Shown: positions 11,037-38,411, counted from the stretch's first letter. The stretch: 64,000 bases of DNA from Candidatus Comchoanobacterales bacterium (GCA_049889175.1 JBMHDW010000002.1:115172-179171), one strand, 5' to 3'. The notes: generated by a model from the sequence alone, not told the origin. Made by a program: numbers and translations.

Positions 11037-11080
11037 GTTTTAGGATTGCAAATAGCCATTTGTTGTGTTAGCATTTGATC

Positions 11081-13669: not shown

Positions 13670-13742
13670 TATATATCCTTAATTTTGATTGATTATAACG
13701 CATTACATGCTACAATACCAAAACTTCAATCAAAGGTATACC

Positions 13743-21497: not shown

Positions 21498-21880
21498 GGG
21501 GGCGTACTTGGGTTCGACGTTGTTGATGAGTTCAAAGGTGCATGTCGAGTATGTCTTTTATCTCGTTAATCTAAAAGACAAAAAAACATAGTTGCCAAGA
21601 AAGACGTAAAAGTTGCCAACGGTAAACTAACACGTTTTGTAGCTAAAGCTGCATAATGTGCCATTCTGCTGATGTGTGCTTGTGCGCGCAGTTAGAATGG
21701 TCATTTGACACAAGCTAGCTTGACGTCTCGTCTAGCGGCTGATGGCGAAGTTCTTTATAGACTCGCAAGAAACTGGGCTGACTGCTGCCTGGTGACTTGT
21801 TAAATGCCTAAAGCAGATCTAAGCATGTAGATCCGATGAATAGTTAATGATGGACGCGGGTTCAAATCCCGCCGCCTCCA
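21498..21880 (+). ncRNA. ssrA: tmRNA (SsrA)
   Basis: 5' GGGGGCGTACTTGGGTTCGACG pairs with the 3' end. T-arm GGACGCGGGTTCAAATCCCGC, then acceptor strand CGCCTCC plus discriminator A, with G3:U70. Internal tag ORF begins after ...AAAAAACAUAGUU: GCC AAG AAA ... GCT GCA TAA (21594-21656). Confidence 0.92.
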
Positions 21881-21946
21881 ATAGTTGAGAAAGTTAGTGT
21901 TATATGTTATTGTTATTTATATTATAATCCTTTAAAGGGAGTTGCA

Positions 21947-22888
21947 ATGATAAAGCATAATAATTCACCTGAAGTTATACCCAATAATGTTGACCAAAAT
22001 GATGTTTTATACCATCAGAAAAAACTAAAGATTCAATCTTTTTTTAATCATAAAGAACAACAAAACAAAAAAAGTCATTTATCGCATCCGTGTTTAGAGA
22101 AATATCAAAGGCCAAATTGGTATCAAAGTAATGAAAATATAAGAGATTTGATCAAACTAGCAAATCAACTCCTAGTGGACTTTGAAGGTGAAAGAATTTA
22201 TGGTTTAGGGCAAAGCCCGGCTTGGATTATTAAAGCTTTAGAATTATTGATAGATAAAAGAGGAGGTTCGAAATCAATTGGTTATATACCTTTCTCTGGT
22301 CGGTTTATGGAGAAAGAAATTAAACGACCTTTTGATAATAATTTTTTTAAAACATTTTGCCATGTCAAAAAAGGCCCATGTTTTCCCAATAATCAAGCAA
22401 TAAATAATTATAGACATGTCCTCGACCAACTTGGCATGGATCCTATTAGCATTATTCAAGCATTTAAGGATAAGCATCAGAAGACAGTATTATTGGAATA
22501 TATTCAAAGTGCAGAGTCACTAGCGTCGTTTATGATTATTTTATACGAATGGGCAATAGAATTAGATAAGTTAGAGCAATTGAAAGAATGCTTCGTTGTT
22601 TGTGCTTTAGCTCAAGATTTTAATAAACTACAGCTTATTTATTTGCCTAAAGTATCATTATATATGAGAAGAATACAAGTCAAGGATACTTTAATCATTC
22701 CACTGGCTAATGGAAAAGATACGGGTCCACAATCAGATAGACTGGTTCCTAAATATTCAGCACAAGATTGGTGTAATCCTATGCATGAAATGATTAATCA
22801 TGATTTTATTAAAGGGTTGGTAGAGAAAGTAAAATGTGAAGTAGACCGCTTTGCTGTTGATGATATTGTTGCAAAAAAACAATCATGA
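21947..22888 (+). CDS. Orphan protein (313 aa); candidate effector
   Basis: ORF with RBS aaaggga immediately downstream of ssrA. No recognisable domain. Confidence 0.55.
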   Translation: MIKHNNSPEVIPNNVDQNDVLYHQKKLKIQSFFNHKEQQNKKSHLSHPCLEKYQRPNWYQSNENIRDLIKLANQLLVDFEGERIYGLGQSPAWIIKALELLIDKRGGSKSIGYIPFSGRFMEKEIKRPFDNNFFKTFCHVKKGPCFPNNQAINNYRHVLDQLGMDPISIIQAFKDKHQKTVLLEYIQSAESLASFMIILYEWAIELDKLEQLKECFVVCALAQDFNKLQLIYLPKVSLYMRRIQVKDTLIIPLANGKDTGPQSDRLVPKYSAQDWCNPMHEMINHDFIKGLVEKVKCEVDRFAVDDIVAKKQS

Positions 22889-24118
22889 CCACAGAGCCCA
22901 AAATTGCTGTTGGTATTGAGCTTGGATGACAAATAGATTAAGCCCAAAAGAGCCAGAGGTATGATAATTAACATCATAAATGACGCCAGATAGATGATCC
23001 AATGAAACACTTCTTGGTAGGGTATTAATAATACAATCAAAGTTATTTAATGAGTTTGAATGTGGTATGCCCATAAGCAATTGTTTTTGAGTGATACCAT
23101 CTTCTCGATGATAGTTAAAAAAACAAGTATGGTTGTGTTTTAATTGATGAGCTAAGAGTTGAGCCATAGAGCCAGCACCTAAAATAAGAATGCGTTGGCG
23201 AGGCCAGTCTTGAGTCAACTCATTGAGTGCAGATTGATCAGTATTGGTCCCAAGCCATTGTTGACCATCAAAGGCTAATGTATTGATAGGTCCTTGATGA
23301 TTACACCATGACGCCACTGTTTGTTTATGAGGTGATGTAATACTTAATTGATGGATTCCCAATATTTCCAATAATGGTTTGAGTTGAGCTACATATTCTG
23401 ACGATACCTCAAGTGTAATGTAAATAGCATCTTGTTGTGTTAAGCGATGATGCAAGCCATGCCAAAATGGGCCCAAACTATGATGAGCAGGATTGCCAAG
23501 TAATGCTCTTATTCTAGTATTTGTTGATATTGGGTTAAGATATCGATCTTGCAGTAATAATTGTGATGAATGTAGGCTCTGATGCCAGCCTAAATAGTCA
23601 AATGCCCCCCATTTGGGTCCTAGGATGCGTAAACTACGACCATGACAACCTGTGCCTAGAATAGTGACTTGTGAATGTTGTTTGATATAAAGCATCATGT
23701 TAAGTGCTTGATATGCACTTTGTATGGGCAATACTATTTTAACATGATCCGCCAACGGTTGTAATTGTTTCACCCAGTCGTCAATATTGTTAATGGATTC
23801 TGTGGTATGTAAGGAGCGAATGACTTTTAAGTTGGGATATTGCTGTTTGATCATTTGAACCCATGCCAGCGGAACATCATGTTCACAGTCTATCCAATCA
23901 GGCTGTATTTTTTGAATTAAATCAACAAAATATTTCAAACGCGATGGTGAAGAGGGTTCATGATGACGATATGTCAATATCGACTGACAATGTTGAAGTT
24001 GGTGCCATTGTTGAATATCATCCAGTGACTTATTGATTAAATCCATACGAAGTTCATAAGCATTAATGTCTTTAGGAAGAGGTATTTGCGGTAAATGATC
24101 AAGACAAAGAATACGCAT
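22883..24118 (-). CDS. aroDE: Bifunctional 3-dehydroquinate dehydratase (type I) / shikimate 5-dehydrogenase fusion
   Basis: The N-terminal half is AroD-like (YELRMDL, VKIVLP..., ILGTGCHGRSLRILGPKWGA). The C-terminal half is AroE-like (LLGNPAHHSLGP, SITSPHKQ, GPINTL...GTNTD, ILILGAGSMA). Confidence 0.82.
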   Translation of the reverse strand: MRILCLDHLPQIPLPKDINAYELRMDLINKSLDDIQQWHQLQHCQSILTYRHHEPSSPSRLKYFVDLIQKIQPDWIDCEHDVPLAWVQMIKQQYPNLKVIRSLHTTESINNIDDWVKQLQPLADHVKIVLPIQSAYQALNMMLYIKQHSQVTILGTGCHGRSLRILGPKWGAFDYLGWHQSLHSSQLLLQDRYLNPISTNTRIRALLGNPAHHSLGPFWHGLHHRLTQQDAIYITLEVSSEYVAQLKPLLEILGIHQLSITSPHKQTVASWCNHQGPINTLAFDGQQWLGTNTDQSALNELTQDWPRQRILILGAGSMAQLLAHQLKHNHTCFFNYHREDGITQKQLLMGIPHSNSLNNFDCIINTLPRSVSLDHLSGVIYDVNYHTSGSFGLNLFVIQAQYQQQFWALWS

Positions 24119-25151
24119 GATTTTTGATCCAATGATGAATAAAGTGTTTGCTTTGTGAGATACTTAATGAGTGAAGAAATGGTTGGCCAAAATCATGAAG
24201 TAATACCCAGGTTAAAGTTGAGCTTTGTCTCTTTTTATCATTCATACATGCGTTAATTAATAAATCTGAGCACATATTTGAAGGTGGTTTAATATTTAAA
24301 CGTTGCCATGCTTGTGTGATGGCATGCACATGTTCTTGTGGGAAGTTAAATAGTTCAGCAGAAACATGTGCGATAAAATGAAGTCCTAGTGCTACACCAA
24401 CACCGTGGGGGACGTGATAGATACTTTCAATGGCATGACCTAATGTATGACCTAAATTAAGCATTTGTCGCCGGTTATGATCATAAGGATCTGCTCTTAC
24501 AAATGATTGCTTAATTTCGAGCTGCTGTTTTATATTATCAGCGTTATGATAGTTTAAGAATGTCTCAATGGGGTCATGGTTATTCAATAAATGCAAGCTG
24601 TATTTTTCATCAGTGAGGAAAAAATGTTTATAGCACTCAATGATGCCATTACGTTTTTCAACCCAAGGAAGTGTTTGAAGAGTTTCCATCACGATTAGGG
24701 TATATTTGGGATTTGAGAAAACACCGAGTGCATTTTTAACGTCACATGCATTAATAGCTGTTTTACCACCCAATGATGCATCAACCATGGCCAAAAGCGA
24801 TGTTGGGCAGTATAGACAATCAATACCTCTTAAATACGTTGCGGCGGTAAAGCCAACAAGATCTAAAATCATGCCACCACCACAAGCGATGATTAAGTCA
24901 TGACGGCATAAGCCCAGTCGTAGCCATTGATCTTCAAGCCATGCTTTGGTGTGTCTAGATTTGCTGGTTTCACCGGCAGGGATAACAATGGTAGCTTCAG
25001 TCGTTAAGATACTCAGTTTGATGGCAATATGTTGTGTATGATGATCACATATAATAATGCTTCGAGGGTATTGTTGAATGAGATATGGCTGAGCTAAATC
25101 ATTAAAAGATCCGATGATATGTACAGTTGAGGGCAGTGAATTATCCAGCAT
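24099..25151 (-). CDS. aroB: 3-dehydroquinate synthase
   Basis: GGGMILDLVGFTAATYLRGI, GGKTAIN and LNLGHTLGHAIE motifs. Overlaps the aroDE start. Confidence 0.9.
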   Translation of the reverse strand: MLDNSLPSTVHIIGSFNDLAQPYLIQQYPRSIIICDHHTQHIAIKLSILTTEATIVIPAGETSKSRHTKAWLEDQWLRLGLCRHDLIIACGGGMILDLVGFTAATYLRGIDCLYCPTSLLAMVDASLGGKTAINACDVKNALGVFSNPKYTLIVMETLQTLPWVEKRNGIIECYKHFFLTDEKYSLHLLNNHDPIETFLNYHNADNIKQQLEIKQSFVRADPYDHNRRQMLNLGHTLGHAIESIYHVPHGVGVALGLHFIAHVSAELFNFPQEHVHAITQAWQRLNIKPPSNMCSDLLINACMNDKKRQSSTLTWVLLHDFGQPFLHSLSISQSKHFIHHWIKNHAYSLS

Positions 25152-25264
25152 ATATTGATGATGGCTATTTTTATGTCAATTTGCAAATGTGTTTCAAAAA
25201 ACAATGCTATTTGTGATATCTAAATCAAATTAATAAAAATAAATCGTGTTTTTTTTCATATATG

Positions 25265-25270
25265 TACTAT
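25265..25270 (+). promoter_or_regulatory. Putative -10 element (TACTAT within TGTACTATA) upstream of A1
   Basis: The block aaatcgtgttttttt...tgtactata recurs upstream of both family-C genes (31176, 32231), at the same roughly 30-nt distance from the ATG. Confidence 0.3.
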
Positions 25271-25300
25271 ACGTTTCATAATTAACTTTGAGGAAATAAA

Positions 25301-26119
25301 ATGGGTAAACAAATGATCATTAGATTAAGTGCGTTAATCGTAGTTATATTAATAGGTGCCGCAGGGTGGTTTTTTCTTCTAGCTGGACCTTATCAAACGG
25401 ATAATATGAAGAAAGTTGATAAGCAGTTCGATGTAGTGCATGATATTTATTATCAACTAGGTGATGGAGACTCTAAGGATCAATTCGGTTCTGTTAATAA
25501 CGGTATTCTGAGTCTTAAGCACATGTACAATCTTCAGTTTGATTGGGATGAGATCAAGCCTTTTGAGCAGAAGTTTAAAGAACGAGATGAACATATTCGT
25601 TCAATTAAAGCAAAGCAAAAAGAGCTTAAAGCCGATGGTGTAAGTGATGATAAGAAAACTCAGTTAAATAATGATATTGCAGATCTAACAAAGAAGGTAG
25701 ATCAAGTATCAAATGATTATCAAACTGCCATAGTAGGTATTGAGAGTATTGACTTGGATGATATTGACAAAGACACTTTGGGTTTGGGTTATTGTGTTTT
25801 AATATCATCATATGCGCCAATAATTTCAGTTAATCTAATAGATACTGATCAAAACGATCTTATTCAGGGTCAAAAATCTAATGCTTCCGATATACGATTG
25901 AAGGATTTAAAATATATTTAAGATGATAAAACAATAGGCGTTGACAAGATGACTGGTAAGCAATATATATCTTTATTAGATGACTGTTATACAGGTATTC
26001 AAAATTGGTATGAACTTTTTACTAAGAATAAAGGTGTGGATCCTAAAGGTGACACTTTTGATTTGAATCTATCGGATGATCAAATTCAATCATTAAAAGA
26101 TGCCATCAAAGATGAGTGA
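25301..26119 (+). pseudogene. Family-A array gene A1, interrupted by one in-frame TAA at 25919-25921
   Basis: N-terminal TM anchor (LSALIVVILIGAAGWFFLLAG) and family-A blocks (VNNGILSLKHMYNLQF..IKPFEQKFKERDEHIRSIKAKQKELK...). After the TAA the same frame continues into ...GVDKMTGKQYISLLDDC...DLNLSDDQIQSLKDAIKDE. Confidence 0.75.
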
Positions 26120-26198
26120 TGATCATGAATAAAGATATGCCCGAATACATTCGGGCATATTTTTATCACACACATTCGTTTTTATGGTCTATAAGAAA
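26117..26198 (+). promoter_or_regulatory. 82-nt intergenic cassette copy 1: intrinsic terminator hairpin (26137-26158 plus T-tract) followed by CACACA-N17-TATAAG putative promoter
   Basis: Perfect palindrome ATGCCCGAAT-AC-ATTCGGGCAT followed by ATTTTTAT, then CACACA (26167) N17 TATAAG (26190-26195). The A2 ATG lies 30 nt downstream. Near-identical copies occur at 26976 and 27782. Confidence 0.6.
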
Positions 26199-26225
26199 GA
26201 GATATTTTAATTAAGGGGTATTGAT

Positions 26226-26978
26226 ATGGATATGGGGTTTTTTGCAGTAATAATGAGTGTTTTGGGGGAGTTATATTTAACCGATGCCATGAAGGAAAAG
26301 AAAAGACAGCTTGACGTGGTAAATAATATTTATTATGAGGTTGATGAGAAGTACCAAGTAGCATTTGGAACAGTAAATAATGGTATTACGAGTCTTAAGC
26401 ACGCTTACGACCTCCAGTTCAACCTAGATGATATCAAACCTTTTGAAAAGAAGTTTAAAGAAAGAGATGAGCATCTTCGTTCAATTAAAGCAAAACAAAA
26501 AGAGCTCAAAGCCGAAGGCGTTAGTGATGACAAGAAAAGTCAGTTGAATGCTGATATTGCAGACCTTACAAAAAAGGTGAATAAAATATCGAAAGACTAT
26601 GAGACTGCAATACAAGGCATTGAAACAATTGCCCTAAGCGATGATGATAAAGGTCGTGATGGTATAGGTTATTGTATTGAGGTCATTGCTGCAAGCAGTA
26701 TGATGGGTGCTCCTGATGACTCCGGTACACTAGACGCTATGAGTGTTCTTGGTTTGACAGGTGATCTTAAATATGATGACGATAAAGGCAAGATTGGTGT
26801 TTGTACGATAACAGGTAAGCAATATGTATCATTATTTGATAGTTGTTTTTCCGCGATTGACATTGTATATGCTGGTTTAATCAAGGGTAAAGGCTTCTCT
26901 GCTGATTCAGAGGTAATTGATTTAAATCTATCGGATGATCAAATTCAATCATTAAAAGATTCCATCAAAGATGAGTGA
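26226..26978 (+). CDS. Family-A array gene A2 (250 aa)
   Basis: RBS aagggg. Contains all family-A blocks and the tail DLNLSDDQIQSLKDSIKDE. Near-identical to A3 at nucleotide level apart from a linker indel. Confidence 0.75.
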   Translation: MDMGFFAVIMSVLGELYLTDAMKEKKRQLDVVNNIYYEVDEKYQVAFGTVNNGITSLKHAYDLQFNLDDIKPFEKKFKERDEHLRSIKAKQKELKAEGVSDDKKSQLNADIADLTKKVNKISKDYETAIQGIETIALSDDDKGRDGIGYCIEVIAASSMMGAPDDSGTLDAMSVLGLTGDLKYDDDKGKIGVCTITGKQYVSLFDSCFSAIDIVYAGLIKGKGFSADSEVIDLNLSDDQIQSLKDSIKDE

Positions 26979-27057
26979 TGATCATGAATAAAGATATGCC
27001 CGAATACATTCGGGCATATTTTTATCACACACATTCGTTTTTATGGTCTATAAGAAA
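26976..27057 (+). promoter_or_regulatory. 82-nt terminator-plus-promoter cassette copy 2
   Basis: Hairpin at 26996-27017, CACACA at 27026, TATAAG at 27049-27054. The A3 ATG lies 28 nt downstream. Confidence 0.6.
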
Positions 27058-27082
27058 TTATAATATAAATTAAGGAGAAAAA

Positions 27083-27784
27083 ATGGAGATAGTTATAAAT
27101 ATATTAGCATTATTTACTGTTTATCAAACGGATCAAATGAAAGAAAAGGAAAGACAGCTTGACGTGGTATATGATATTTACAATGCGGTTGATGAGAAGT
27201 ACCAAACATCATTTGAAACAGTAAATAATGGTATTTTGAGTCTTAAGCACGCTTACGACCTCCAGTTCAACCTAGATGATATCAAACCTTTTGAAAAGAA
27301 GTTTAAAGAAAGAGACGAGCATCTTCGTTCAATTAAAGCAAAACAAAAAGAGCTAAAAGCCGAAGGCGTTAGTGATGATAAGAAAACTCAGTTAAATAAT
27401 GATATTGCAGATCTAACAAAAAAGGTGAATAAAATATCGAAAGACTATGAGACAGCAATACAAGGCATTGAAAGCATAGCCCTAAGCGATGATGATAAAG
27501 GTAGTGATGGTATAGGTTATTGTATTGAGGTCATTGCTGCAAGCAGTATGATGGGTGCTCCTGATGAATTCAGTACAGTAAGTGACGCTATGAGTGTTCT
27601 TGGTGTTGATACGATAACAGGTAAGCAATATGTATCATTATTTGATAGTTGTTTTTCCGCGATTGACACTCTATATGCTGGTTTAATCAAGAATAAAGGC
27701 TTCTCTGCTGATCAAGAGGTAATTGATTTAAATCTATCGGATGATCAAATTCAATCATTAAAAGATGCCATCAAAGATGAGTGA
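27083..27784 (+). CDS. Family-A array gene A3 (233 aa)
   Basis: RBS aaggag. Family-A blocks and tail DLNLSDDQIQSLKDAIKDE. Confidence 0.78.
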   Translation: MEIVINILALFTVYQTDQMKEKERQLDVVYDIYNAVDEKYQTSFETVNNGILSLKHAYDLQFNLDDIKPFEKKFKERDEHLRSIKAKQKELKAEGVSDDKKTQLNNDIADLTKKVNKISKDYETAIQGIESIALSDDDKGSDGIGYCIEVIAASSMMGAPDEFSTVSDAMSVLGVDTITGKQYVSLFDSCFSAIDTLYAGLIKNKGFSADQEVIDLNLSDDQIQSLKDAIKDE

Positions 27785-27863
27785 TGATCATGAATAAAGA
27801 TATGCCCGAATACATTCGGGCATATTTTTATCACACACATTCGTTTTTATGGTCTATAAGAAA
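27782..27863 (+). promoter_or_regulatory. 82-nt terminator-plus-promoter cassette copy 3 (precedes B1)
   Basis: Hairpin at 27802-27823 and TATAAG at 27855-27860. The B1 ATG lies 25 nt downstream. Confidence 0.6.
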
Positions 27864-27885
27864 GAAATATACTAATAAGGATTGT

Positions 27886-28488
27886 ATGATTAAACACATA
27901 TTAATGTTATTTTTCAGTGCTGTAACAATGCAGGCTGGATTTGCAGAACAAGAAGGTGAATGTACTAAAGTTTTATCAACAGATCTAGATAGTCGTATCA
28001 TTTATTGGGAAGATACGTTGGGTGAAGATCATGATACCAACGTTGATTCTTTCAAAGATATACATCATGGTCTCAAAAGTTTTAAATTCTTGATCAGTCT
28101 TGAAGATCCATTATGTATCAATAAAAAAGACTCAAAGGGTATGATTGGTTTAGATTATAATGATAGATATCAAGTAGCAGGGTGTATGAATATTATCAAA
28201 AAAGCCTATGATATTGCTGTAAACAACAATCTTGAATATTTACAAAGTTTGAGAAGGCATCATGACGAAATTAGGGTGATGATCAATTACGATGAAAATA
28301 CTAGACAAATGAAGGCTAGCTCAATACCTGTTGATGAAATGAGACGGTTAAAAGATTTTTGTGAGATTTCTATACAGCTACATTACTGTCAGCTGTTAAA
28401 ATCAAAAGACCAAAGTGATGACCAAAAAAAAGAAATGAAGAAAACATATCCCAACATTGAGTTTATTTGTAAGGATTATCAAAGTTAA
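27886..28488 (+). CDS. Family-B array gene B1: secreted six-Cys protein (about 200 aa)
   Basis: The start was reset to MIKHILMLFFSAVTMQAGFA (Sec-type signal peptide, RBS aagga). The six Cys are conserved with B2 (AGCMNIIKKAYDIA, FCEISIQLHYCQLL, FICKDY). Confidence 0.7.
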   Translation: MIKHILMLFFSAVTMQAGFAEQEGECTKVLSTDLDSRIIYWEDTLGEDHDTNVDSFKDIHHGLKSFKFLISLEDPLCINKKDSKGMIGLDYNDRYQVAGCMNIIKKAYDIAVNNNLEYLQSLRRHHDEIRVMINYDENTRQMKASSIPVDEMRRLKDFCEISIQLHYCQLLKSKDQSDDQKKEMKKTYPNIEFICKDYQS

Positions 28489-28577
28489 TCCAGAAGAGTG
28501 CAAGCATCCTCTTGGTTGTATTTAACTATATTAATGAGTAATAGTAATCCTAAATATATAATAAATAAAAATAAAAA

Positions 28578-28609
28578 CACACAAATGGTCTTTTTTGGTC
28601 TATAAGAAA
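28578..28609 (+). promoter_or_regulatory. Diverged copy of the CACACA-N17-TATAAGAAA putative promoter upstream of A4
   Basis: cacacaaatggtcttttttggtctataagaaa. The A4 ATG lies 29 nt downstream of TATAAG. Confidence 0.45.
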
Positions 28610-28635
28610 TAATAATATAAATTAAGGAGAAAAAA

Positions 28636-29412
28636 ATGGAAGATATCATTATAGCAGGTTTATTGGGATTGTGGATAACCTATTTTTTTTATGAAACATT
28701 TATGTTTTATGTTAATTTTTATGAAACAGATGAATGGGCGAAAAAGGAAAGTCAGGTTGCTGAAATAGTAAAAATTTCTGATCTAAATGATGATGCAACT
28801 TTTACAATAAATAGTCTTGAGGCTGCTGCTCATAACTTTTCTATTCTTGAAGCTGGGAAGTTTAAATTTGATAAGGCAAGTAATATTAGCAACATTCTTA
28901 AAAAAAGAGATGAACATCTTAGAGTGATTAATGCTAAGGAAAAAGAATTAAAGCTTGATAATATTAGTGATGATACTAAAAGTCAGTTAAATAATGATAT
29001 TGAAAGGCTTACAGGTCAAGTTGATGCGTTAACTAATGAATTTTTCACCATAGTAGAAGGTAGTCATGAAATGTCTGTATCTGATTGGAGTTTAGTAATG
29101 GTTCAAACGTGTTTGTATCCCTTGATTTGGGGAAAGAATGATGATACTAAGCATTCAAAATTGATTGAACCTGAAGAAATTAAGAGATTGGCAAGTGAAC
29201 TTGAATTATCTCCTGAGGGATTTATAGGAGTCGATGAGATAACAGGCAAGCAATATTTATTGTTATACAATAGTTGTTCTGCTAGCGTTGACTACTTATA
29301 TGATGGCATTTTGAACAACAAAGGATTTTCAGCTACAGATCAAAGTAGGATCGATTTAAACCTATCTGATGAGACAATTCAGCGATTTAAAGATGCCGTT
29401 AAAGATGAGTGA
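28636..29412 (+). CDS. Family-A array gene A4 (258 aa, diverged)
   Basis: RBS aaggag. TM anchor IIIAGLLGLWITYFFY. Blocks KKRDEHLRVINAKEKELK...QLNNDIERLT and ...ITGKQYLLLYNSC...NKGFS...DLNLSDETIQRFKDAVKDE. Confidence 0.75.
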   Translation: MEDIIIAGLLGLWITYFFYETFMFYVNFYETDEWAKKESQVAEIVKISDLNDDATFTINSLEAAAHNFSILEAGKFKFDKASNISNILKKRDEHLRVINAKEKELKLDNISDDTKSQLNNDIERLTGQVDALTNEFFTIVEGSHEMSVSDWSLVMVQTCLYPLIWGKNDDTKHSKLIEPEEIKRLASELELSPEGFIGVDEITGKQYLLLYNSCSASVDYLYDGILNNKGFSATDQSRIDLNLSDETIQRFKDAVKDE

Positions 29413-29441
29413 TTATGATCTTAAAAAAGGGTTATTTTTTT

Positions 29442-29473
29442 CACACAAAGTATCTTTTTTGGTCTATAAGAAA
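29442..29473 (+). promoter_or_regulatory. Diverged copy of the CACACA-N17-TATAAGAAA putative promoter upstream of B2
   Basis: cacacaaagtatcttttttggtctataagaaa. The B2 ATG lies 26 nt downstream. Confidence 0.45.
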
Positions 29474-29496
29474 AAGTAATGTTAATGAAGGAGTTT

Positions 29497-30132
29497 ATGA
29501 TGAGAAAATTATCAATGATTATGCTGGGATCTCTAGCGATGCATACAGGTTTTGCAGATGAAAGCTGCAATTTAGATGAAAGCTTCATTTTAGATGAAAA
29601 TGACATAACAAAACATCATGACAATAGATATGAAGTTATGGAGAAAATTTATGAAGAGATCTCACTAGATGAAGTCAAGAATGATCTTATATATATCCTG
29701 ACTGGCCATGTTAGTTTAAAATATATTATCGGTTTTGCTGAAGTTAATTGTTTAAAAGAAGATGAAGCAGACAAAATAGTCCACATATCAGATTTAGATG
29801 ACTATGGAAGGAGTTCATTAGGCTTTGCTGGCTGTATCCACATGATGAGTATGGCTCATGACATTGCCAGTGAAAAAGGATATAGATTTGTAGATGATGC
29901 AAAAAAAGTTTTTGAAGATCATAGTGAAAGTTTTGATTATCAGGAAAACATACAAATAAATGCTGACCAAGTCACAGTTAGCCAGGTAAGTAGTATTATA
30001 GAACGTTGTGCCTATTCTTTGGTGGTTAATTATTGTCATTTATTAGAAAATAAAAATTTAAGTGATGGTCATAAAAATAGTCTTAAGGAGGCACATCCTG
30101 GTATAGACAGTCTTTGTCAAAAAATGAAATAA
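29497..30132 (+). CDS. Family-B array gene B2: secreted six-Cys protein
   Basis: RBS gaaggag. Signal peptide MMRKLSMIMLGSLAMHTGFA. Cys pattern is collinear with B1 (AGCIHMMSMAHDIA, RCAYSLVVNYCHLL, SLCQKM). Confidence 0.7.
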   Translation: MMRKLSMIMLGSLAMHTGFADESCNLDESFILDENDITKHHDNRYEVMEKIYEEISLDEVKNDLIYILTGHVSLKYIIGFAEVNCLKEDEADKIVHISDLDDYGRSSLGFAGCIHMMSMAHDIASEKGYRFVDDAKKVFEDHSESFDYQENIQINADQVTVSQVSSIIERCAYSLVVNYCHLLENKNLSDGHKNSLKEAHPGIDSLCQKMK

Positions 30133-30162
30133 ACCCAATGACTCATTGAGACAAAAACAAAT

Positions 30163-30187
30163 GCCCCGATTAAACGGGGCTTTTGTT
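30163..30187 (+). terminator. Intrinsic terminator after B2
   Basis: GCCCCG-ATTAAA-CGGGGC followed by TTTTGTT. Confidence 0.7.
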
Positions 30188-30226
30188 GGATCAATAGTTT
30201 ATTAAATCACAATGTTGGAGCGTTAA

Positions 30227-31144
30227 ATGACTGATACAATGAAACTAATCAACCTACTGATAGTAGCAACTATCATTTTTGTAGGGATTTGGTACTTTTA
30301 TCCCGATCATGAAGAACGTGACCAGCCATCAAAAGATGATCAGAGTGACATACAAGATAATAAAACTCACTTTGAAAAGGTATTAGAGCGTCAGTTTGAT
30401 GCATTGGTTGATTTAAAAACAACGGATCAAAATACCAGCAATAATGTCAACGCACTGGTGTTGGGTTTGATGAATATCCAGCATATGAATCAACGTCAAT
30501 TTGAACTAGAAGATATTAAGCCCTTTAGAAAAGCATTTATTGAACAAGATGGTGATGAATTAACGTTAAAAGATAAAATCAATAAGCTTGATCACAACAA
30601 CTTAAAACCAAAAGAAAAAGATCAGCTAAATCAAGATATCGAATCGTTAACTCAAAAAATAAACCAGGTTAATCAGGATTATCTTTCAGCATTTAAAGCT
30701 ATTAAAGAGATTCAGTTAACAGAGGAAGATAAATCAGCCATGGGAATGGAACAGTGTATCTTATTGCCAGGATGGGCAGTCATATTGGAAAATGGTAATC
30801 AACTGAGTGATTCATCAAAAAAGATAAAAGATCTTAATAGCAATAATATAACGATTAATGACATCAGTTCAGTTTTAGAAGCGACAAATATTTTTAATCA
30901 TGTTAAGCATCACATATCTGAAAAGAATGACCTTAAAACAAAGCTAATGGGCGATGGTTCTTCAATAATTGTCGAGACTATTTCTGGAGAAGACTATATC
31001 ACAATCTATACATCATGTATTCAAGCAGCAGACATCATGTATCAATCATTGCTAAACAATAAAGGCATTGGAAAAGGAGTATTTCCTGTGGATTTATCTT
31101 TAACATCAGAGCAAATCGAGCAATTAAAGAGTGCAGTTAAATGA
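30227..31144 (+). CDS. Family-A array gene A5 (305 aa, most diverged, longest linker)
   Basis: TM anchor LINLLIVATIIFVGIWYF. Blocks IKPFRKAF...QLNQDIESLTQKINQVNQDY and ...ISGEDYITIYTSC...NNKGIG...DLSLTSEQIEQLKSAVK. Confidence 0.72.
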   Translation: MTDTMKLINLLIVATIIFVGIWYFYPDHEERDQPSKDDQSDIQDNKTHFEKVLERQFDALVDLKTTDQNTSNNVNALVLGLMNIQHMNQRQFELEDIKPFRKAFIEQDGDELTLKDKINKLDHNNLKPKEKDQLNQDIESLTQKINQVNQDYLSAFKAIKEIQLTEEDKSAMGMEQCILLPGWAVILENGNQLSDSSKKIKDLNSNNITINDISSVLEATNIFNHVKHHISEKNDLKTKLMGDGSSIIVETISGEDYITIYTSCIQAADIMYQSLLNNKGIGKGVFPVDLSLTSEQIEQLKSAVK

Positions 31145-31175
31145 TTTAAAAAATCATGTTTTTTATAATAATTTG

Positions 31176-31181
31176 TACTAT
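31176..31181 (+). promoter_or_regulatory. Putative -10 (TACTAT) upstream of C1
   Basis: Conserved aaaaaatcatgtttttta...tttgtactata block, shared with the C2 and A1 upstream regions. Confidence 0.3.
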
Positions 31182-31210
31182 ATAGAAGATACAAATAACA
31201 GAGGTAAATT

Positions 31211-32020
31211 ATGGTAGCAAAAAAAGATACTCACAATGATTGTTGTCAACAGCATTGTTGTTCAATGATGAAAAGAGGACTAAAGATCGCAGTAGCAGGT
31301 TTATTGTTTGTTGGTATTGGACATGCAGATGATCATTTGTCTAATGAAAAATTGACTGTAACATCGATTATGAATCAAGAATTCAATTCATATATTTAAC
31401 CAATCAACGAGATTAAAAGAGTTGAGAAAGCAAAGGATAAGCCAAAAAAAGAATTACTGGATGCCATTGATCAGATTATTAATGCCAGTAAAGGAATACA
31501 AGATATTCAACATGCTCAATTAAGACACCCCCATGTAGTTCCTGTAGTTAATGAGTTTAATGACCTAATAAAACAAGGTGTTTTAGTGAATCATGTGATT
31601 CTTATTGTTGATGAGAAAGGAAAGGAAGAAACTGATAATAAGACGTCATTAGTAAAAAACTTAAAGGAAATAATTAATAAAAGCATGACATCGCAATGGC
31701 AATATCCTATTACATACAGTGATATACAAAAGTGTCTGGATATTGAAGTCCCAGATGATTTTAAAGTAGACGTTGATGGTAGTATGGTTGAGCTGACCGA
31801 TGAAGTTAAAAAGAAGTTGGCTGATAAGAGAGTTGCGTATTATAGAGATTGGAAAACAATCTTAAATAAAGGTGATGAATTAATGTTGGGAGGTTCTTTG
31901 GGATATATTGTAAATGAATGTAATAATAGAGGTCATGCATGGACAGTTTTCATTAACAGTGATGAAATGAAAGCTCATATGACTGATTATCAGAAAGAGT
32001 TATTGAAATCAGTAAAGTGA
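31211..32020 (+). pseudogene. Family-C array gene C1, interrupted by one in-frame TAA (31397-31399) and carrying a deletion in the TM region
   Basis: Collinear with C2. GAA in C2 (HIELINEIKR) is TAA here (YI*PINEIKR). ORFs 31211-31399 and 31586-32020 are in the same frame. The GWYGYNHWF segment of C2 is missing. Confidence 0.8.
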
Positions 32021-32070
32021 TTACTGCTCTTTAAGTTAAAATACCTAAAAAGGGGGGGTAAGTATTCCTG

Positions 32071-32193
32071 ATTCAAGCAGCAGACATCATGAATCAATTA
32101 TTTCTAAACAATAAAGGCATTGGAGAAGGAGTATTTCCTGTGGATTTATCTTTAAACATCAGATCAAGTCAAGCAATTAAAGAGTGCGGTTAA
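32071..32193 (+). pseudogene. Remnant of the A5 3' end created by the tandem duplication
   Basis: attcaagcagcagacatcatg...aataaaggcattgga...tttcctgtggatttatcttta... matches 31019-31144, with substitutions and a 1-nt indel. There is no start codon. Confidence 0.85.
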
Positions 32194-32230
32194 ATAATTT
32201 TAAAAAAATCATGTTTTTTATAATAATTTG

Positions 32231-32236
32231 TACTAT
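32231..32236 (+). promoter_or_regulatory. Putative -10 (TACTAT) upstream of C2
   Basis: Same conserved block as at 31176. Confidence 0.3.
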
Positions 32237-32265
32237 ATGGAAGATACAAATAACAGAGGTAAATT

Positions 32266-33093
32266 ATGGTAGCAAAAAAAGATATTCACAATGATTGTTG
32301 TCAACAGCATTGTTGTTGTCGTTCAATGATGAAGGGCGGGCTAAAGATTGCAGCAGTAGGTCTATTGGTTGTTGGTGTTGGATATGCAGGGTGGTATGGT
32401 TATAATCACTGGTTTAATGAAACATTGACTGTAACATCGATTATGGATCAACAAATCAATTCACATATTGAACTAATCAACGAGATTAAAAGAGTTGAGA
32501 AAGCAAAGGATAAGCCAAAAAAAGAATTACTGAATACAATTGATCAGATTATTAATGCCAGTAAAGGAATACAAGATATTCAACATGCTAAATTAAGACA
32601 CCCCCATGTAGTTCCTGTAGTTAATGAGGTTAACGACTTAATAAAACAAGGTGTTGTAGTGAATCATGAGATTCTTATTGTTGATGAGAAAGGAAAGGAA
32701 GAAACTGATAATAAGACGTCATTAGTGCACGCTTTAAATGATGGAATTAATAAAAGCATGACATCGCAATGGCAATATCCTATTACATACAGTGATATAC
32801 AAAAGTGTCTGGATATTGAAGCCCCAGATGATTTTAAAGTAGACGTTGATGGTAGTATGGTTGAGCTGACCGATGAAGTTAAAAAGAAGTTGGCTGATAA
32901 GAGAGTTGCGTATTATAGAGATTGGAAAACAATCTTAAATAAAGGTGATGAATTAATGTTAAGAGATTCTTTGGATAATATTCAAGAAGAATGTAATAAA
33001 AGAACGCATGCATGGATAGTTTTCATTAACAGTGATGAAATGAAAGCTCATATGACTGATTATCAGAAAGAGTTATTGAAATCAGTAAAGTGA
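32266..33093 (+). CDS. Family-C array gene C2 (275 aa): Cys-cluster N-terminus, single TM, extracytoplasmic domain
   Basis: RBS gaggt. MVAKKDIHNDCCQQHCCC followed by TM LKIAAVGLLVVGVGYAGWYGY. C-terminal tail MTDYQKELLKSVK. Confidence 0.72.
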   Translation: MVAKKDIHNDCCQQHCCCRSMMKGGLKIAAVGLLVVGVGYAGWYGYNHWFNETLTVTSIMDQQINSHIELINEIKRVEKAKDKPKKELLNTIDQIINASKGIQDIQHAKLRHPHVVPVVNEVNDLIKQGVVVNHEILIVDEKGKEETDNKTSLVHALNDGINKSMTSQWQYPITYSDIQKCLDIEAPDDFKVDVDGSMVELTDEVKKKLADKRVAYYRDWKTILNKGDELMLRDSLDNIQEECNKRTHAWIVFINSDEMKAHMTDYQKELLKSVK

Positions 33094-33124
33094 TTACTGC
33101 TCTTTAAGTTGAAATACCAAAAAA

Positions 33125-33150
33125 GGGAGGCGTTAAGCTTCCCTTTTTTT
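33125..33150 (+). terminator. Intrinsic terminator after C2
   Basis: GGGAGGC-GTTAA-GCTTCCC (one G:U pair) followed by TTTTTTT. Confidence 0.7.
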
Positions 33151-33193
33151 ATTGTTTAGATCACGTTATAATATCATTATTTTAAGGGTAACA

Positions 33194-34312
33194 ATGAATC
33201 AATTGGGTCAATACTGTACACTAACAACGTGGGGTGAGTCTCATGGCGATGCTATTGGTGGTGTTATTGATGGATTACCCTCAGGGCTTGTTATTAATAT
33301 GGACGTTATTCATGCGGATATGCAACGGCGACGGCCAGGGCAAAGAAAAGATGTTAGTGCCCGTAAAGAACCTGATCAGTTGACCATTCATTCAGGTGTT
33401 TATCTAGGCAAAACCACGGGTGCACCATTGTCTTTCAGTATTGTGAATCAAGATGTTAGATCACAAGATTATCCTCAAAAGCTCATTCGACCTGGTCATG
33501 CTGATGCAACTTATTTAGCTAAATATGGTCATTATGATCCTCGAGGTGGTGGTCGTTCTTCTGCACGTGAAACCGCTATACGCGTCGCTGCTGCCAGTAT
33601 GATCAAACAGCTGCTTAAACCGTTGGGCATCGATGTTTGGGCGTATTTATGTCAAGTTGGACCTTTTCATATGCCTGTTTTGCAGCAGCGCCCTGAAGAT
33701 GCTCAGGATGCGCTCATCAATGGATCATTTCCTTGCCCAGATCAAAAGCTATCTCAAGATATGCAAAATCATATTCAATCGCTTAAAGAGGCTGGTAATT
33801 CTTGTGGGGGCTGTGTGGGCTTTGTGATTTCAGGCTTGCCAAAAGGTTTGGGTGAGCCGGTTTATGATAAGTTTGAGGCTAGATTAGCGCAGTCAATGCT
33901 TTCGATTCCAGCCAGTAAAGGCTTTGATATCGGTCAGGGTTTTGGCGCTGCAGCTATGACAGGCTTAGCTCATAATGATTCGCCTAACGAGCATGATGGC
34001 TTTGATAGTAATGCTGCTGGTGGTTTGTTAGGTGGTATTACCAATGGTGATCCAGTGTATGGACGAGTAGCCTTTAAGCCCACATCAAGTATCAGATTGA
34101 GTCAAAAAACTATCGATTACGATGCCAAACCAACACAATTGGTTTTGCAAGGCCGTCATGATCCATGTGTGGCTGTTCGTGCAACAGTGGTGGTTGAGGC
34201 AATGTGTTGGTTAACTATTATTGATCTTTTACAGCCTTACTGGCAACAGCAATCCATGCAAAAGATGTTAGATCAACATTCAACAGCAGTCAGCCAAGAA
34301 GGATCGCTGTAA
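33194..34312 (+). CDS. aroC: Chorismate synthase
   Basis: TTWGESHG, RRRPGQ, GGGRSSARETA and GGLLGGITNG motifs. The start was set at MNQLGQY. The 3' end overlaps the convergent aroK 3' end by 40 nt. Confidence 0.92.
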   Translation: MNQLGQYCTLTTWGESHGDAIGGVIDGLPSGLVINMDVIHADMQRRRPGQRKDVSARKEPDQLTIHSGVYLGKTTGAPLSFSIVNQDVRSQDYPQKLIRPGHADATYLAKYGHYDPRGGGRSSARETAIRVAAASMIKQLLKPLGIDVWAYLCQVGPFHMPVLQQRPEDAQDALINGSFPCPDQKLSQDMQNHIQSLKEAGNSCGGCVGFVISGLPKGLGEPVYDKFEARLAQSMLSIPASKGFDIGQGFGAAAMTGLAHNDSPNEHDGFDSNAAGGLLGGITNGDPVYGRVAFKPTSSIRLSQKTIDYDAKPTQLVLQGRHDPCVAVRATVVVEAMCWLTIIDLLQPYWQQQSMQKMLDQHSTAVSQEGSL

Positions 34313-34725
34313 CGATGTGTGGCAATGGCCATGTATTGTTCATGTCGTTGTGCCCACCAAGATGACCAATCATGAGGATAGCGACCATGGTCTTGATGTA
34401 ATCGTTCGTGTGTCCAGGACATCGGTCGGTCAAGGTAAAGGCAAAAGCGACATGATTGCTTTATCCATTGTGCATTAGGTGTGAAGAGTGGTGTGCCGCC
34501 ACCGCAATCCAAAATGCCATCTTTTGATAGGTTATGTAGTTGAAGGTTTTCTAGCCACATAAAATAGTTATCACCATACTGGCGGATTATCTCTCTTGGT
34601 GACATTTCATATGTGTTATCAAGGTGAGTAACAGGGCGTTGTAAAGTTTTGCTGAGCTGTTGGCTTAGTGTGGTCTTTCCTGATCCTGGAAAGCCAATGA
34701 TGGCGATGTATACTGATTGATCCAT
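34273..34725 (-). CDS. aroK: Shikimate kinase
   Basis: P-loop IAIIGFPGSGKTTLSQQL, about 150 aa, located between aroA and aroC. Overlaps the aroA 3' end by 61 nt. Confidence 0.75.
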   Translation of the reverse strand: MDQSVYIAIIGFPGSGKTTLSQQLSKTLQRPVTHLDNTYEMSPREIIRQYGDNYFMWLENLQLHNLSKDGILDCGGGTPLFTPNAQWIKQSCRFCLYLDRPMSWTHERLHQDHGRYPHDWSSWWAQRHEQYMAIATHRYSDPSWLTAVEC

Positions 34726-35939
34726 GTGAATGTCTCTTTAAATTGTGGAAAGCTTTTATTAATGCAATGATCGTGACTTAACGGCTTTGCATCAGCGCAG
34801 ATTGAGTTAGCTAGATGTAACATCATTGCCATACGGTGATCTTGGTAATGATCTAATGATGCATGATGTAATGCTGATGGGTAAACAACCATTGTGTCAT
34901 CATGATAATCGATTGCAGCCCCCATTAAACCGAGTTGTTGTTGAATTACCTTTGGGCGATTACATTCTTTGGTTGTTGCAATACGGATGCCAGAGAACAT
35001 GCTGGGTCCTGTATCGGCTTGAGTGGCCATTAAGGCCATTAATGGTAATAAGTCAATGCTGTCATTCAAATCTGCTTGAATGGGGTCAATGATTTTTGGC
35101 GGGATGATGCTTATTTTTTGTGCATGTATTGTTATCTTAGCCCCCATTTGTTTCAAAAGCTTGATGATGGCAGTGTCGGGTTGTGACCATTGTGATAATC
35201 TATAGGGCATTGATAGGGCTTTTTGATGTAGTATTGACCACACTAACCAGTGCCCAATCAAGCCAATATCAATGGGTAAAGAGGTCTCAAAGCCATGGGT
35301 GTTGGTTTTGGGGGTGATGCGAATTGAATCCCAGTGATCTTGAACTATCTGATGGCCAAGAAAGCGTAGCCAGTCTATGGTCATTGAAATGAAAGGGCGC
35401 TCACCAGCGTGTTGCAGATTAATCGATGAAGGCGGTTGATTAGTTAGTGCAAGAACGCATAATAAAGCGCTTATCGGCTGGCTGTCTTCGCTATGAATGG
35501 TTATCGATGTGTTAGTTAAGGGCCCATGAATACTTAAAGGTGCAAAGCCTGGATGCTCTAAATACTGTATCTGTGCACCACAATCAATTAATGTATTGAC
35601 CAAAGTGGCCATAGGGCGTGTTTGGCATGATGCATCACCCGTTATGATGGTTTTGTGGGGTTGAGTGGCAGCTAGCGCACTAACAAATCTTAATAAAATA
35701 CCCGAGTTACCAGCATCTAGTTGGCTTTTAAATGGCCAGCCATTGGGCGTTACTGTTGCTGTATTGTGACTGATTTGAATCATCAATGGATCTTTAAGCA
35801 TTGAGATTAAGGTATAGACATCATCAGATAAGGTTACAGGTGTAATGTGACTTGGTGAGTCGCAAAATAGCGCCATTAAAAGAGCCCTCAATTGATGAGA
35901 TTTTGAGATGGGCATTAAGTAATGTGGTATTTGAATCAT
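34665..35939 (-). CDS. aroA: 3-phosphoshikimate 1-carboxyvinyltransferase (EPSP synthase)
   Basis: PISKSHQLRALLMA (compare LPGSKS..NR), DHRMAMM near the C-terminus, about 425 aa. Confidence 0.85.
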   Translation of the reverse strand: MIQIPHYLMPISKSHQLRALLMALFCDSPSHITPVTLSDDVYTLISMLKDPLMIQISHNTATVTPNGWPFKSQLDAGNSGILLRFVSALAATQPHKTIITGDASCQTRPMATLVNTLIDCGAQIQYLEHPGFAPLSIHGPLTNTSITIHSEDSQPISALLCVLALTNQPPSSINLQHAGERPFISMTIDWLRFLGHQIVQDHWDSIRITPKTNTHGFETSLPIDIGLIGHWLVWSILHQKALSMPYRLSQWSQPDTAIIKLLKQMGAKITIHAQKISIIPPKIIDPIQADLNDSIDLLPLMALMATQADTGPSMFSGIRIATTKECNRPKVIQQQLGLMGAAIDYHDDTMVVYPSALHHASLDHYQDHRMAMMLHLANSICADAKPLSHDHCINKSFPQFKETFTWINQYTSPSLAFQDQERPH

Positions 35940-36046
35940 GAAAGGCAGTCTAGCGATTATTATGCACTCATGCAAGTTACGTTGCTAAAGGTTTAAAAAC
36001 CATTCATCTTGAGTTAAACTGATTTTAAGATTAAATTAAGGATGTT

Positions 36047-36244: not shown

Positions 36245-36575
36245 AACCCTTTTTACGCGTATCATTGAACGTCATATCCCTGCGGATATTGTTTATGAAG
36301 ATGAATTATGCATTGCCATTAAAGATATTATGCCTCAAGCCCCTGTTCATGTTTTATTAATTCCCAAAAAAGTCATTCCTAAGTTAAATGAAATGATTGA
36401 TGAGGATGCAGCACTAATGGGGCATCTTATGACTCGTATTCCTCAAATAACCCGATCGCTCTCATTGAGTGACTACCGTGTAGTGATTAACCACGGCGCA
36501 TCAGCAGGTCAAACAGTATTTCATCTACATATTCATATTCTCGGCGGACGCGATTTCCAATGGCCTCCAGGTTAG
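36222..36575 (+). CDS. HIT-family (HinT-like) nucleotide hydrolase
   Basis: Histidine triad HLHIHILGG, and N-terminus LFTRIIERHIPADIVYEDE. Confidence 0.88.
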   Translation: MSQFNEDKTLFTRIIERHIPADIVYEDELCIAIKDIMPQAPVHVLLIPKKVIPKLNEMIDEDAALMGHLMTRIPQITRSLSLSDYRVVINHGASAGQTVFHLHIHILGGRDFQWPPG

Positions 36576-37033
36576 TAGCGACCTTCTTTAAGTGCTTTTC
36601 CCTGATCTCGTTTCCATTCGCGTTCTTTGATATCTTGCCTTTTATCACGCTGGTTTTTACCAACGCACAATGCGATGCTGAGCTTAGCGCGTTGTTTACG
36701 TAGATGAAGGGTAAGTGGAATAATAGTTGCTTTTTTGCGAGTGACTGCGCCAAGTAATGTGTCAATTTCTTTGCGATGAAGTAATAATTTTCGGCGTCGA
36801 TTAGGTTCAGGGTTAAGATAAGCGGGTATGGTTGCTAGTGGTGTGATTTGTGATTGCAGCAACCATGCTTCATTATTCACGATGGTGACATATGATTCAG
36901 CAAGCTGACCATGTTTTTGTCGTAAACTTTTAATTTCCCATCCTTCTAAAACAATGCCGCACTCAAAGGTCTCTAACCAGTGGTAGTTGAACTTGGCTTT
37001 CCTACGGTTGTCGATCAAAATGGTGTCACTCAT
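36572..37033 (-). CDS. smpB: SsrA-binding protein SmpB
   Basis: NRRKAKFNYHWLETFECGIVLEGWEIKSLR and a basic C-terminal tail. About 153 aa. Confidence 0.92.
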   Translation of the reverse strand: MSDTILIDNRRKAKFNYHWLETFECGIVLEGWEIKSLRQKHGQLAESYVTIVNNEAWLLQSQITPLATIPAYLNPEPNRRRKLLLHRKEIDTLLGAVTRKKATIIPLTLHLRKQRAKLSIALCVGKNQRDKRQDIKEREWKRDQGKALKEGRY

Positions 37034-38353: not shown

Positions 38354-38411
38354 GAGCTTGCATCCAATTCTGGAAACAGAATGAATTCAAATGGTAAATA
38401 GGAGTTACGTA

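Follow-up and report, generated by a model that had tools for sequence, protein, structure and literature searches.

What kind of locus occupies the roughly 8 kb between aroB and aroC in a Candidatus Comchoanobacterales genome? We analysed a 64,000-nt stretch (the window) of a metagenome-assembled genome (MAG) from this order, GCA_049889175.1 JBMHDW010000002.1:115172-179171, in which a scan for open reading frames (ORFs) places nine plus-strand genes or gene remnants, and one further remnant, between these two shikimate genes. They form a tandem orphan array that evolves by birth and death, with concerted evolution of tails and spacers, cassette-like replacement of cores, and reading frames that stay open despite fast change. 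Comchoanobacterales are obligate, resource-dependent associates of marine choanoflagellates (PMC9418006), and we consider the chances about even that this array, restricted to one species and evolving by birth and death, encodes Sec-exported envelope or secreted proteins acting at the choanoflagellate interface. An earlier, sequence-only reading had proposed a duplicating and decaying family of exported host-interaction proteins and singled it out as the best candidate for an undescribed system. Its evolutionary part is well supported and its functional part is plausible; the label "undescribed system" overstates what the analysis establishes.

The scan reproduced every ORF coordinate of that reading and the plus-strand orientation throughout, and the array is composed as follows:

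A1, 25301-26119, plus strand: family A, with a strong N-terminal transmembrane segment and an in-frame TAA at 25919-25921
A2, 26226-26978, plus strand: intact family A ORF of 250 amino acids (aa), its N-terminal hydrophobic segment a remnant
A3, 27083-27784, plus strand: intact family A ORF of 233 aa, its transmembrane segment deleted
B1, 27886-28488, plus strand: family B, 200 aa, with a cleavable-type signal peptide (…MQAGFA/EQ, a slash marking the predicted cleavage site) and six Cys
A4, 28636-29412, plus strand: family A, 258 aa, with a core hypervariable between strains
B2, 29497-30132, plus strand: family B, 211 aa, with a signal peptide and six Cys
A5, 30227-31144, plus strand: family A, 305 aa, with a strong transmembrane segment and the longest linker
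C1, 31211-32020, plus strand: family C pseudogene, broken by an in-frame TAA at 31397-31399, its transmembrane segment degraded
Remnant, 32071-32195, plus strand: frameshifted A5-type 3' tail at the junction of a 1,052-nt duplication
C2, 32266-33093, plus strand: intact family C ORF of 275 aa

The in-frame TAA codons of A1 and C1 are the nonsense codons that had been noticed in two copies; the remnant is a sixth copy of the A tail that had been overlooked. All array proteins are hypothetical in the MAG annotation (locus tags ACON5A_02315 to ACON5A_02365, on a 213,778-bp contig), which enters A1 as two ORFs of 206 and 56 aa; alternative starts of B2 lie at 29479 and 29500. At 32% GC, with an estimated stop frequency of ~0.076 per codon, chance would not be expected to leave frames of 200-305 codons open, and the minus-strand ORFs that the scan found inside the array interval are all ≤73 aa.

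How isolated are these proteins? Searches of Pfam, NCBIfam, PHROGs and PADLOC with the array proteins gave nothing above noise, and profiles of A, B and C against PDB sequences returned coiled-coil noise alone (Lpp, designed bundles and InlB, E ≥0.02). A full HMMER search of 1.84 billion protein representatives with family A recovered the array's own copies only. Similarly, a word-indexed search of 5.8 billion proteins with A, B and C found nothing outside this species, the matches being this MAG and near-identical or allelic copies from three metagenome assemblies. Family A had no relatives in scans of GTDB species genomes, IMG/VR or JGI metagenomes, and family C none in the last of these. 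The aroC of this genome likewise had no match when scanned against GTDB genomes, which ruled out a cross-species comparison of the junction. Within the libraries searched the families are restricted to one species; their orphan status, as first proposed, holds against Pfam, NCBIfam, PHROG, PADLOC and PDB sequences, and no confident homology to a characterised family emerged. The AlphaFold 2 (AF2) model of A3 is an all-alpha helical bundle with a predicted local distance difference test score (pLDDT) of 76.6 and a predicted template modelling score (pTM) of 0.71, and Foldseek matched it to no known fold (best E 0.29 in the PDB and 0.097 in BFVD, TM <0.3). The AF2 model of C2, with a pLDDT of 31, is unusable for a fold search.

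The array had been divided into three families. Across the five aligned A proteins 32 columns are invariant, and they include the motifs quoted for family A as well as its two conserved Cys (C147 and C190, A3 numbering). The linker, put by eye at about 20 to about 80 aa, measures ~27 to 72 aa from the first conserved Cys to TGKQY. Family A has a long helical hairpin followed by a hydrophobic stretch and ends in a tail, DLNLSDDQIQSLKDAIKDE, that is its best-conserved protein segment, acidic, and of low confidence in the A3 model (pLDDT 44-55). The last 30 residues of A1-A4 hold 7-8 Asp or Glu, a composition that is not diagnostic, and the tails of B and C are not acidic. The N-terminal anchor ascribed to every A protein is clear solely in A1 and A5 (Kyte-Doolittle 2.2-2.6); A2 and A3 have 13-14-residue remnants, and the A4 N-terminus is aromatic and hydrophobic. 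The two family B proteins have 25% identity and six Cys apiece, as described.

We propose that A and B are probably related over the C-terminal ~130 aa of A, which would reduce three families to two superfamilies. In Smith-Waterman comparisons with B2, A3 gives z = 7.3, the A1 tail z = 5.6 and A5 z = 5.3, with 0 of 1000 shuffles reaching the observed score and C2 controls at z ≤2.3. The alignment covers ~130 residues, places two B Cys opposite the two of A and pairs NLSDDQIQSLKDS with NLSDGHKNSLKEA. Likewise, a hidden Markov model (HMM) of A proteins only matches B2 at E 7e-4 in a six-frame translation of the window, and hhalign of A against B gives a probability of 81.5% with a sister-strain B-like gene (B', see below) included. 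On these comparisons A-B homology is probable, not proven; family C is unrelated to A and to B. The array would then be a tandemly amplified, species-restricted cluster of two unrelated orphan superfamilies, A/B and C. Members of A/B would have in common a Cys-containing C-terminal helical domain; the additions would be a long charged helical hairpin plus an N-terminal membrane anchor in A-type copies, and a cleavable Sec signal peptide plus four more Cys in B-type copies. Superfamily C would consist of a cytoplasmic Cys/His cluster, one transmembrane helix and an external domain.

The family C genes arose by duplication. C2 has an N-terminal Cys/His cluster (HNDCCQQHCCC), one transmembrane segment and a ~230-aa domain without a recognised fold, and the earlier description of family C fits it; in C1, which is 86% identical, the transmembrane segment has suffered a 4-codon deletion and charged substitutions. 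Repeat analysis derives the pair from a tandem duplication of a 1,052-nt unit, 31019-32070 copied to 32071-~33125, that spans codon ~265 of A5 (31019) to the terminator of C. This duplication carried the A5 tail along and left a frameshifted A5-tail remnant at 32071-32195. In two other samples intact C copies have A5-tail remnants alongside. We also note an intact 275-aa C gene in Logan sample SRR31805816 (L003 136-963) whose N-terminal part is that of C2 and whose C-terminal part is that of C1; it is a real recombinant, a single-copy allele or a collapsed assembly of two repeats.

Comparison between strains shows how the remainder of the array changes. The sister strain, represented by contigs from Logan sample SRR28326305, is 97.3% identical to the window on the aroB side (11.3 kb) and 98.5% identical on the aroC side (4.5 kb), and the array has the same two end junctions in both strains. 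A 3-kb sister-strain contig inside the array is a mosaic with sharp boundaries: DNA identity to the window is 90-99% in B1 and 94-100% in A5, and drops to 55-88% in the A4 core and 46-60% in the B2 mature region, while the A4 tail (last ~150 nt) and its spacer return to 98-100%. The sister-strain version of the mature part of B2 is only 37% identical. Conserved flanks around a variable core, proposed from the window by itself, are thus seen between strains. Other differences alter gene structure. A ~200-nt deletion in the sister strain joins B' in frame to codon ~47 of A5, without a repeat at the junction, and the first A gene of that strain joins the full transmembrane segment of A1 to an A3-like body. 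Within the window, A2 and A3 had been called almost identical in DNA, which goes too far: they are 90% identical with 60 gap columns, their first ~90 nt are unrelated and their 5' ends are 39-47% identical. The window's own allele occurs on a TARA contig at 99.75% identity, and intact C and A4 copies recur across TARA, ENA and Logan samples.

Between these two strains, 97-98.5% identical in the flanks that were compared, no other stretch found is as variable as the array. The repeat analysis, the A2/A3 comparison and the inter-strain mosaic all bear out the ongoing duplication, gene conversion and decay suggested by the sequence-only reading. Birth and death here proceeds by segmental duplication, gene conversion of 3' tails with their spacers, and replacement of whole cores between strains, and further by in-frame fusion, loss of transmembrane segments and nonsense decay. 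Against the sister strain, the synonymous rate (dS) of A4 is 0.45 and that of B2 is saturated; these cores were therefore replaced, through recombination or through differential retention of paralogues, instead of diverging where they stood. We think it distinctly unlikely that the array is a cassette-variation locus, in which the near-identical A tail, spacer and promoter and partly conserved signal-peptide segments would serve as recombination anchors, and matched pairs of A and B cores would be swapped or fused between strains. Each strain would then have its own set of secreted and anchored helical proteins, and the set would determine which choanoflagellate hosts it is compatible with.

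The spacers contain repeated elements that resemble promoters and terminators:

26135-26160, no strand assigned: palindromic hairpin then a T run, intrinsic-terminator-like, after A1
26994-27019 and 27800-27825: identical copies of this hairpin
30163-30180 (after B2) and 33119-33149 (after C2): other terminator-like hairpins
25263-25271, plus strand: promoter-like motif TG[GT][TA]CTATA, upstream of A1
26185, 27044, 27850, 28596, 29460, 31174 and 32229: further TG[GT][TA]CTATA sites

Terminator-like hairpins are enriched (14 sites, 2.2 expected). The TG[GT][TA]CTATA motif occurs nine times in the 64 kb (2.4 expected), and eight of the nine sites are in the array, 36-41 nt upstream of eight of its nine start codons; A5 is the exception. 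Each array site has a Shine-Dalgarno sequence downstream, and the motif is common to the otherwise unrelated A/B and C units. Each array gene therefore looks like its own transcription unit, made up of promoter-like motif, Shine-Dalgarno sequence, ORF and, mostly, a hairpin terminator. A sigma-E-like reading of the GGTCTATAAG motif was rejected, inspection having revealed no GGAACTT-like -35 element. The spacers also hold a short ORF of 29 aa (MNKDMPEYIRAYFYHTHSFLWSIRK...) at 26125-26214, 26984-27070 and 27790-27885, with diverged copies near 29409-29561 and 28560-28635, and sister strain and diverged copies alike keep part of its peptide. This ORF coincides in part with the terminator hairpin and the promoter-like motif, and for that reason we treat it as probably non-coding.

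Is selection acting on the array? Nei-Gojobori estimates against the sister strain give dS of 0.02-0.08 and ratios of nonsynonymous to synonymous rates (dN/dS) of 0.15-0.33 for the flanking housekeeping genes, aroB being higher at 0.70. With dS similar to that of the flanking genes, dN/dS is 1.08 for B1, 0.84 for A5 and ~1.0 for C2. Pooled nonsynonymous to synonymous differences (Nd:Sd) are 64:15 for these three genes and 74:99 for seven flanking genes (five shikimate genes, smpB and a 1105-aa oxidoreductase-like ORF), an odds ratio of 5.7 (Fisher p = 1e-8). The frames have nevertheless stayed open. Placing 192 random substitutions in A4 creates a mean of 10.8 stops, and 0 of 5000 simulations remained open; A4 and its allele differ by ~190 substitutions and both are open (P < 2e-4 under neutrality, by simulation). 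Deep paralogue pairs keep their motifs at dN/dS 0.2-0.45. Intact copies are held open by selection while their amino-acid sequence changes fast, and we propose that the array proteins would be under diversifying or frequently changing selection at a host interface.

The same data address a different explanation, that the array is a functionless, decaying gene field, in which paralogues left over as a symbiont genome shrinks would drift under relaxed selection. Nonsense codons in A1 and C1, loss of the transmembrane segment in A2, A3 and C1, the truncated B1 of the sister strain, a dN/dS of 0.8-1.1 between recent orthologues and an array G+C below that of the flanks would all be expected of such a field. 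It would not, however, keep seven ORFs of 200-305 codons open at 32% GC, nor accumulate ~190 substitutions between A4 alleles with no stop (P < 2e-4 under neutrality). Deep paralogues would not retain motifs and Cys at dN/dS 0.2-0.45, and even diverged units would not still share promoter-like motif, Shine-Dalgarno sequence and terminators. Copies of C and A4 that are intact turn up repeatedly in the TARA, ENA and Logan samples; it had been allowed that all copies might prove disrupted in relatives, and intact ones are present in at least four other metagenome samples. We regard the decay explanation as improbable.

Where would these proteins act? Family B signal peptides, judged by inspection, have n-h-c organisation and end in GFA/E, GFA/D and GYS/E: a positive n-region, a hydrophobic h-region and small residues at -3 and -1 (MIKHILMLFFSAVTMQAGFA/EQ, MMRKLSMIMLGSLAMHTGFA/DE and MRKLPLILLGSLVMHTGYS/EE). 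One N-terminal transmembrane segment is present in each of A1, A5 and C2, and SecA is encoded within the window. The export claimed earlier is in keeping with these features, which are features of sequence alone. The natural B'::A5 fusion swaps the A5 anchor for a B signal peptide, and this places the bodies of B and A5 on one side of the membrane. We suggest that B would be exported by Sec and that A and C would be anchored with their bodies outside the cytoplasm, the extracytoplasmic location being suggested by signal peptides, anchors and conserved Cys. A role at the host interface is plausible from the biology of the organism and by analogy with other systems.

Several observations weigh against exported proteins diversifying at that interface. 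The dN/dS near 1 in recent comparisons equally fits relaxed constraint, the sister-strain B1 is truncated at its C-terminus, and two window copies (A1 and C1) are pseudogenes. A2 and A3 are without an anchor, and the A4 N-terminus is without positive charges. An N-terminal anchor would keep A and C in the Gram-negative inner membrane, not on the cell surface. The variable cassettes are known from two alleles, all on short metagenome contigs, and hhalign of A against B1 and B2 alone gives a probability of 4% (E 0.009).

Predicted topology that holds A and C in the inner membrane would also suit lineage-specific periplasmic or inner-membrane housekeeping proteins with no direct host role, for example in support of a wall-reduced symbiont envelope. 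The conserved Cys suggest periplasmic disulfides, and membrane-component pathways are reduced in the order (PMC9418006). Core replacement, copy-number change, pseudogenes and dN/dS near 1 are, however, unexpected of housekeeping proteins between strains with 97-98.5% identity, and we judge this explanation to have as slim a chance as functionless decay.

The principal alternative is that the array encodes substrates of a type IVB (Dot/Icm-type) secretion system, A and C being effectors that insert into the membrane of the host or vacuole, with the translocation signal in the C-terminal tail, which is conserved and acidic. Coxiella and Legionella effectors are typically orphan, rich in coiled coils, strain-variable and often pseudogenised, and the array fits these traits. 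The order has a complete, expressed, Coxiella-like type IVB secretion system (T4BSS; PMC9418006). The tail DLNLSDDQIQSLKDAIKDE, best conserved, acidic and of low pLDDT (44-55), might suit a translocation signal, which for such effectors would be an acidic, E-block-like and unstructured final ~20-30 residues, and the cytosolic CCxxHCCC cluster of C beside a transmembrane helix may resemble a eukaryotic palmitoylation context. What such substrates leave unexplained is family B: its signal peptides are canonical, cleavable and of Sec type, its six Cys are conserved, and it has a domain and two Cys in common with A. Nor are there T4BSS genes among the Pfam matches in the 64-kb window. The PmrA-type element is a TTAATATT-like sequence repeated in tandem every 11 bp. 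Its consensus, TTAA-N7-TTAA, lies upstream of none of the array genes (its two sites in the array, at 25907 and 27890, are both inside coding sequence), a negative that counts only if PmrA is present in this organism. We consider the type IVB explanation unlikely but serious, and rank decay, a housekeeping envelope role and the A-B toxin discussed next as less likely than it.

Adjacent A and B genes might encode interacting pairs, either a binary, membrane-active ClyA/Xax-like toxin or a toxin-immunity-like module, whose partners would co-vary through the need to match. A3-B1 and A4-B2 alternate, the A4 and B2 cores were replaced jointly and B1 and A5 were not, and A has a hydrophobic stretch after a long helical hairpin. 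The top NCBIfam match of A1-A3 is the alpha-xenorhabdolysin subunit A family (E 9e-5 to 9e-4). That match, however, scores 19-22 bits against a cut-off of 125 (for NF033928, 18.7-21.9 bits in A1-A3 and no match in A4 or A5). XaxA, YaxA and ClyA are absent from the PDB sequence matches even at E up to 10, and Foldseek of the A3 model against the PDB gave nothing at E 0.001 or better (XaxB E 0.78 with TM and TMq 0.17, ClyA E 1.6, SmhB E 1.7). The variable part is N-terminal and central, not a C-terminal toxin domain, no Pfam toxin domain was matched, and A1-A2-A3 run on without an interleaved B gene. We hold such pairs to be highly improbable.

The preferred interpretation, a diversifying array of exported proteins, invites comparison with known systems, and in kind the array resembles the variable tandem exported-protein families of host-dependent bacteria, yet it is built from families without known relatives. 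Like Anaplasma msp2/p44, Ehrlichia omp-1/p28 and Chlamydia pmp, it is a tandem set of lineage-restricted exported-protein repeats in a host-dependent bacterium, with conserved ends, variable cores, inter-copy recombination and pseudogene copies. Those arrays, however, encode recognised beta-barrel or autotransporter outer-membrane families; here the anchors are of inner-membrane type, family matches are nil, and the A3 model, all-helical at pTM 0.71, is no beta-barrel. In contrast to msp2-type arrays, this one shows no evident expression-site mechanism. The Dot/Icm effector paralogues of Coxiella and Legionella form families that are likewise orphan, coiled-coil-rich, low in GC, strain-variable and often pseudogenised; they differ in that here B has a Sec signal peptide, A and B have conserved Cys pairs, and there is no PmrA-type element. 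Chlamydial Inc clusters are also orphan genes of an intracellular bacterium with an N-terminal hydrophobic segment followed by a coiled coil. Inc proteins, however, have a bilobed hydrophobic domain (~40-60 residues) and use type III secretion, whereas here the segment is a single one of 20-25 residues in A1, A5 and C2, and there is none in A2 and A3; the match to the InaC family model is noise (E 0.25). ClyA/XaxAB toxins are elongated helical bundles with a hydrophobic stretch, their two related components encoded adjacently, but the sequence and fold tests fail (22 bits against 125; Foldseek E ≥0.78, TM <0.25). A polymorphic toxin/immunity module, with a conserved N-terminal region, a variable C-terminal toxin domain and a cognate immunity gene downstream, does not fit either: here the C-terminal tail is conserved, the N-terminal and central core is variable, and PADLOC matches are nil. 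Finally, phage spanins (Rz/Rz1) and other phage or defence genes do not fit, with no PHROG or PADLOC match, no IMG/VR relatives, no BFVD fold match and no lipobox in B.

Is the array a newcomer to this chromosome? The shikimate genes around it, as identified by Pfam, are these:

22883-24118, minus strand: aroD-aroE fusion
24099-25151, minus strand: aroB (E 4e-36)
33194-34312, plus strand: aroC (E 1.5e-117)
34273-34725, minus strand: aroK
34665-35975, minus strand: aroA

The rest of the window is ordinary chromosome (bamA, skp, fabZ, lpxB, dnaE, lptD and secA, with many Pfam-less ORFs). The array G+C is below that of its flanks; its GC3, at 0.23-0.30, is similar to that of the remaining genome. 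Because GC3 is genome-like, the low G+C reflects amino-acid composition and not foreign origin, and the array is resident, not newly acquired. Recent horizontal transfer was rejected on the same measure, and a prophage or genomic island on the absence of an integrase and of phage matches in the window scans. A tmRNA gene lies 3.4 kb from the array, with aroDE and aroB in between.

Other features of the window are recorded here. The tmRNA gene (21498-21883, plus strand; Rfam 176 bits, tag peptide AKKDVKVANGKLTRFVAKAA) has no integrase adjoining, and together with smpB (36572-37033, minus strand), ~15 kb away, it brackets the shikimate genes and the array. The Pfam domain matches of the aroD-aroE fusion are weak (E 2e-10 and 2e-8), and aroB has a dN/dS of 0.70 against the sister strain where the other shikimate genes have 0.15-0.33; constraint on the pathway may be relaxed. 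A 450-aa ORF at 49102-50454 (minus strand) matches the DNase II family (PF03265) in two stretches at E 4e-50. Most members of this family are eukaryotic and bacterial ones are rare, and the ORF could be a host-derived or effector-type gene. A BolA-glutaredoxin fusion ORF lies at 13689-14273 (plus strand), and the sole Pfam match of the 1105-aa ORF at 16140-19457 (plus strand) is a mid-protein Pyr_redox_2 domain. Ten further ORFs, 217-712 aa long, went unmatched in Pfam at thresholds of E 1e-3 to 1e-4, and none of them is related to A, B or C:

11075-13213, 14270-15664, 20649-21491, 21947-22888 and 38391-39638: first five Pfam-less ORFs
39776-40909, 40949-41656, 45451-46302, 48405-49058 and 50505-51533: other five Pfam-less ORFs

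Two of them have raised dN/dS against the sister strain, 0.89 for 21947-22888 and 0.46 for 20649-21491.

To our knowledge, no interface molecules are known for these bacteria beyond the predicted type IVB system and repeat-domain proteins, and the array offers concrete candidates for interaction factors specific to a strain or host. Should its products be ordinary envelope proteins or decaying genes, its interest would be confined to genome evolution, and there it is a clean natural case of birth and death in a reduced genome, with duplication, conversion, core replacement, fusion and decay acting jointly. If the array does prove to be a cassette-variation locus, this relative of Coxiella would possess both a protein family of new fold and a variable interface system of a new kind.

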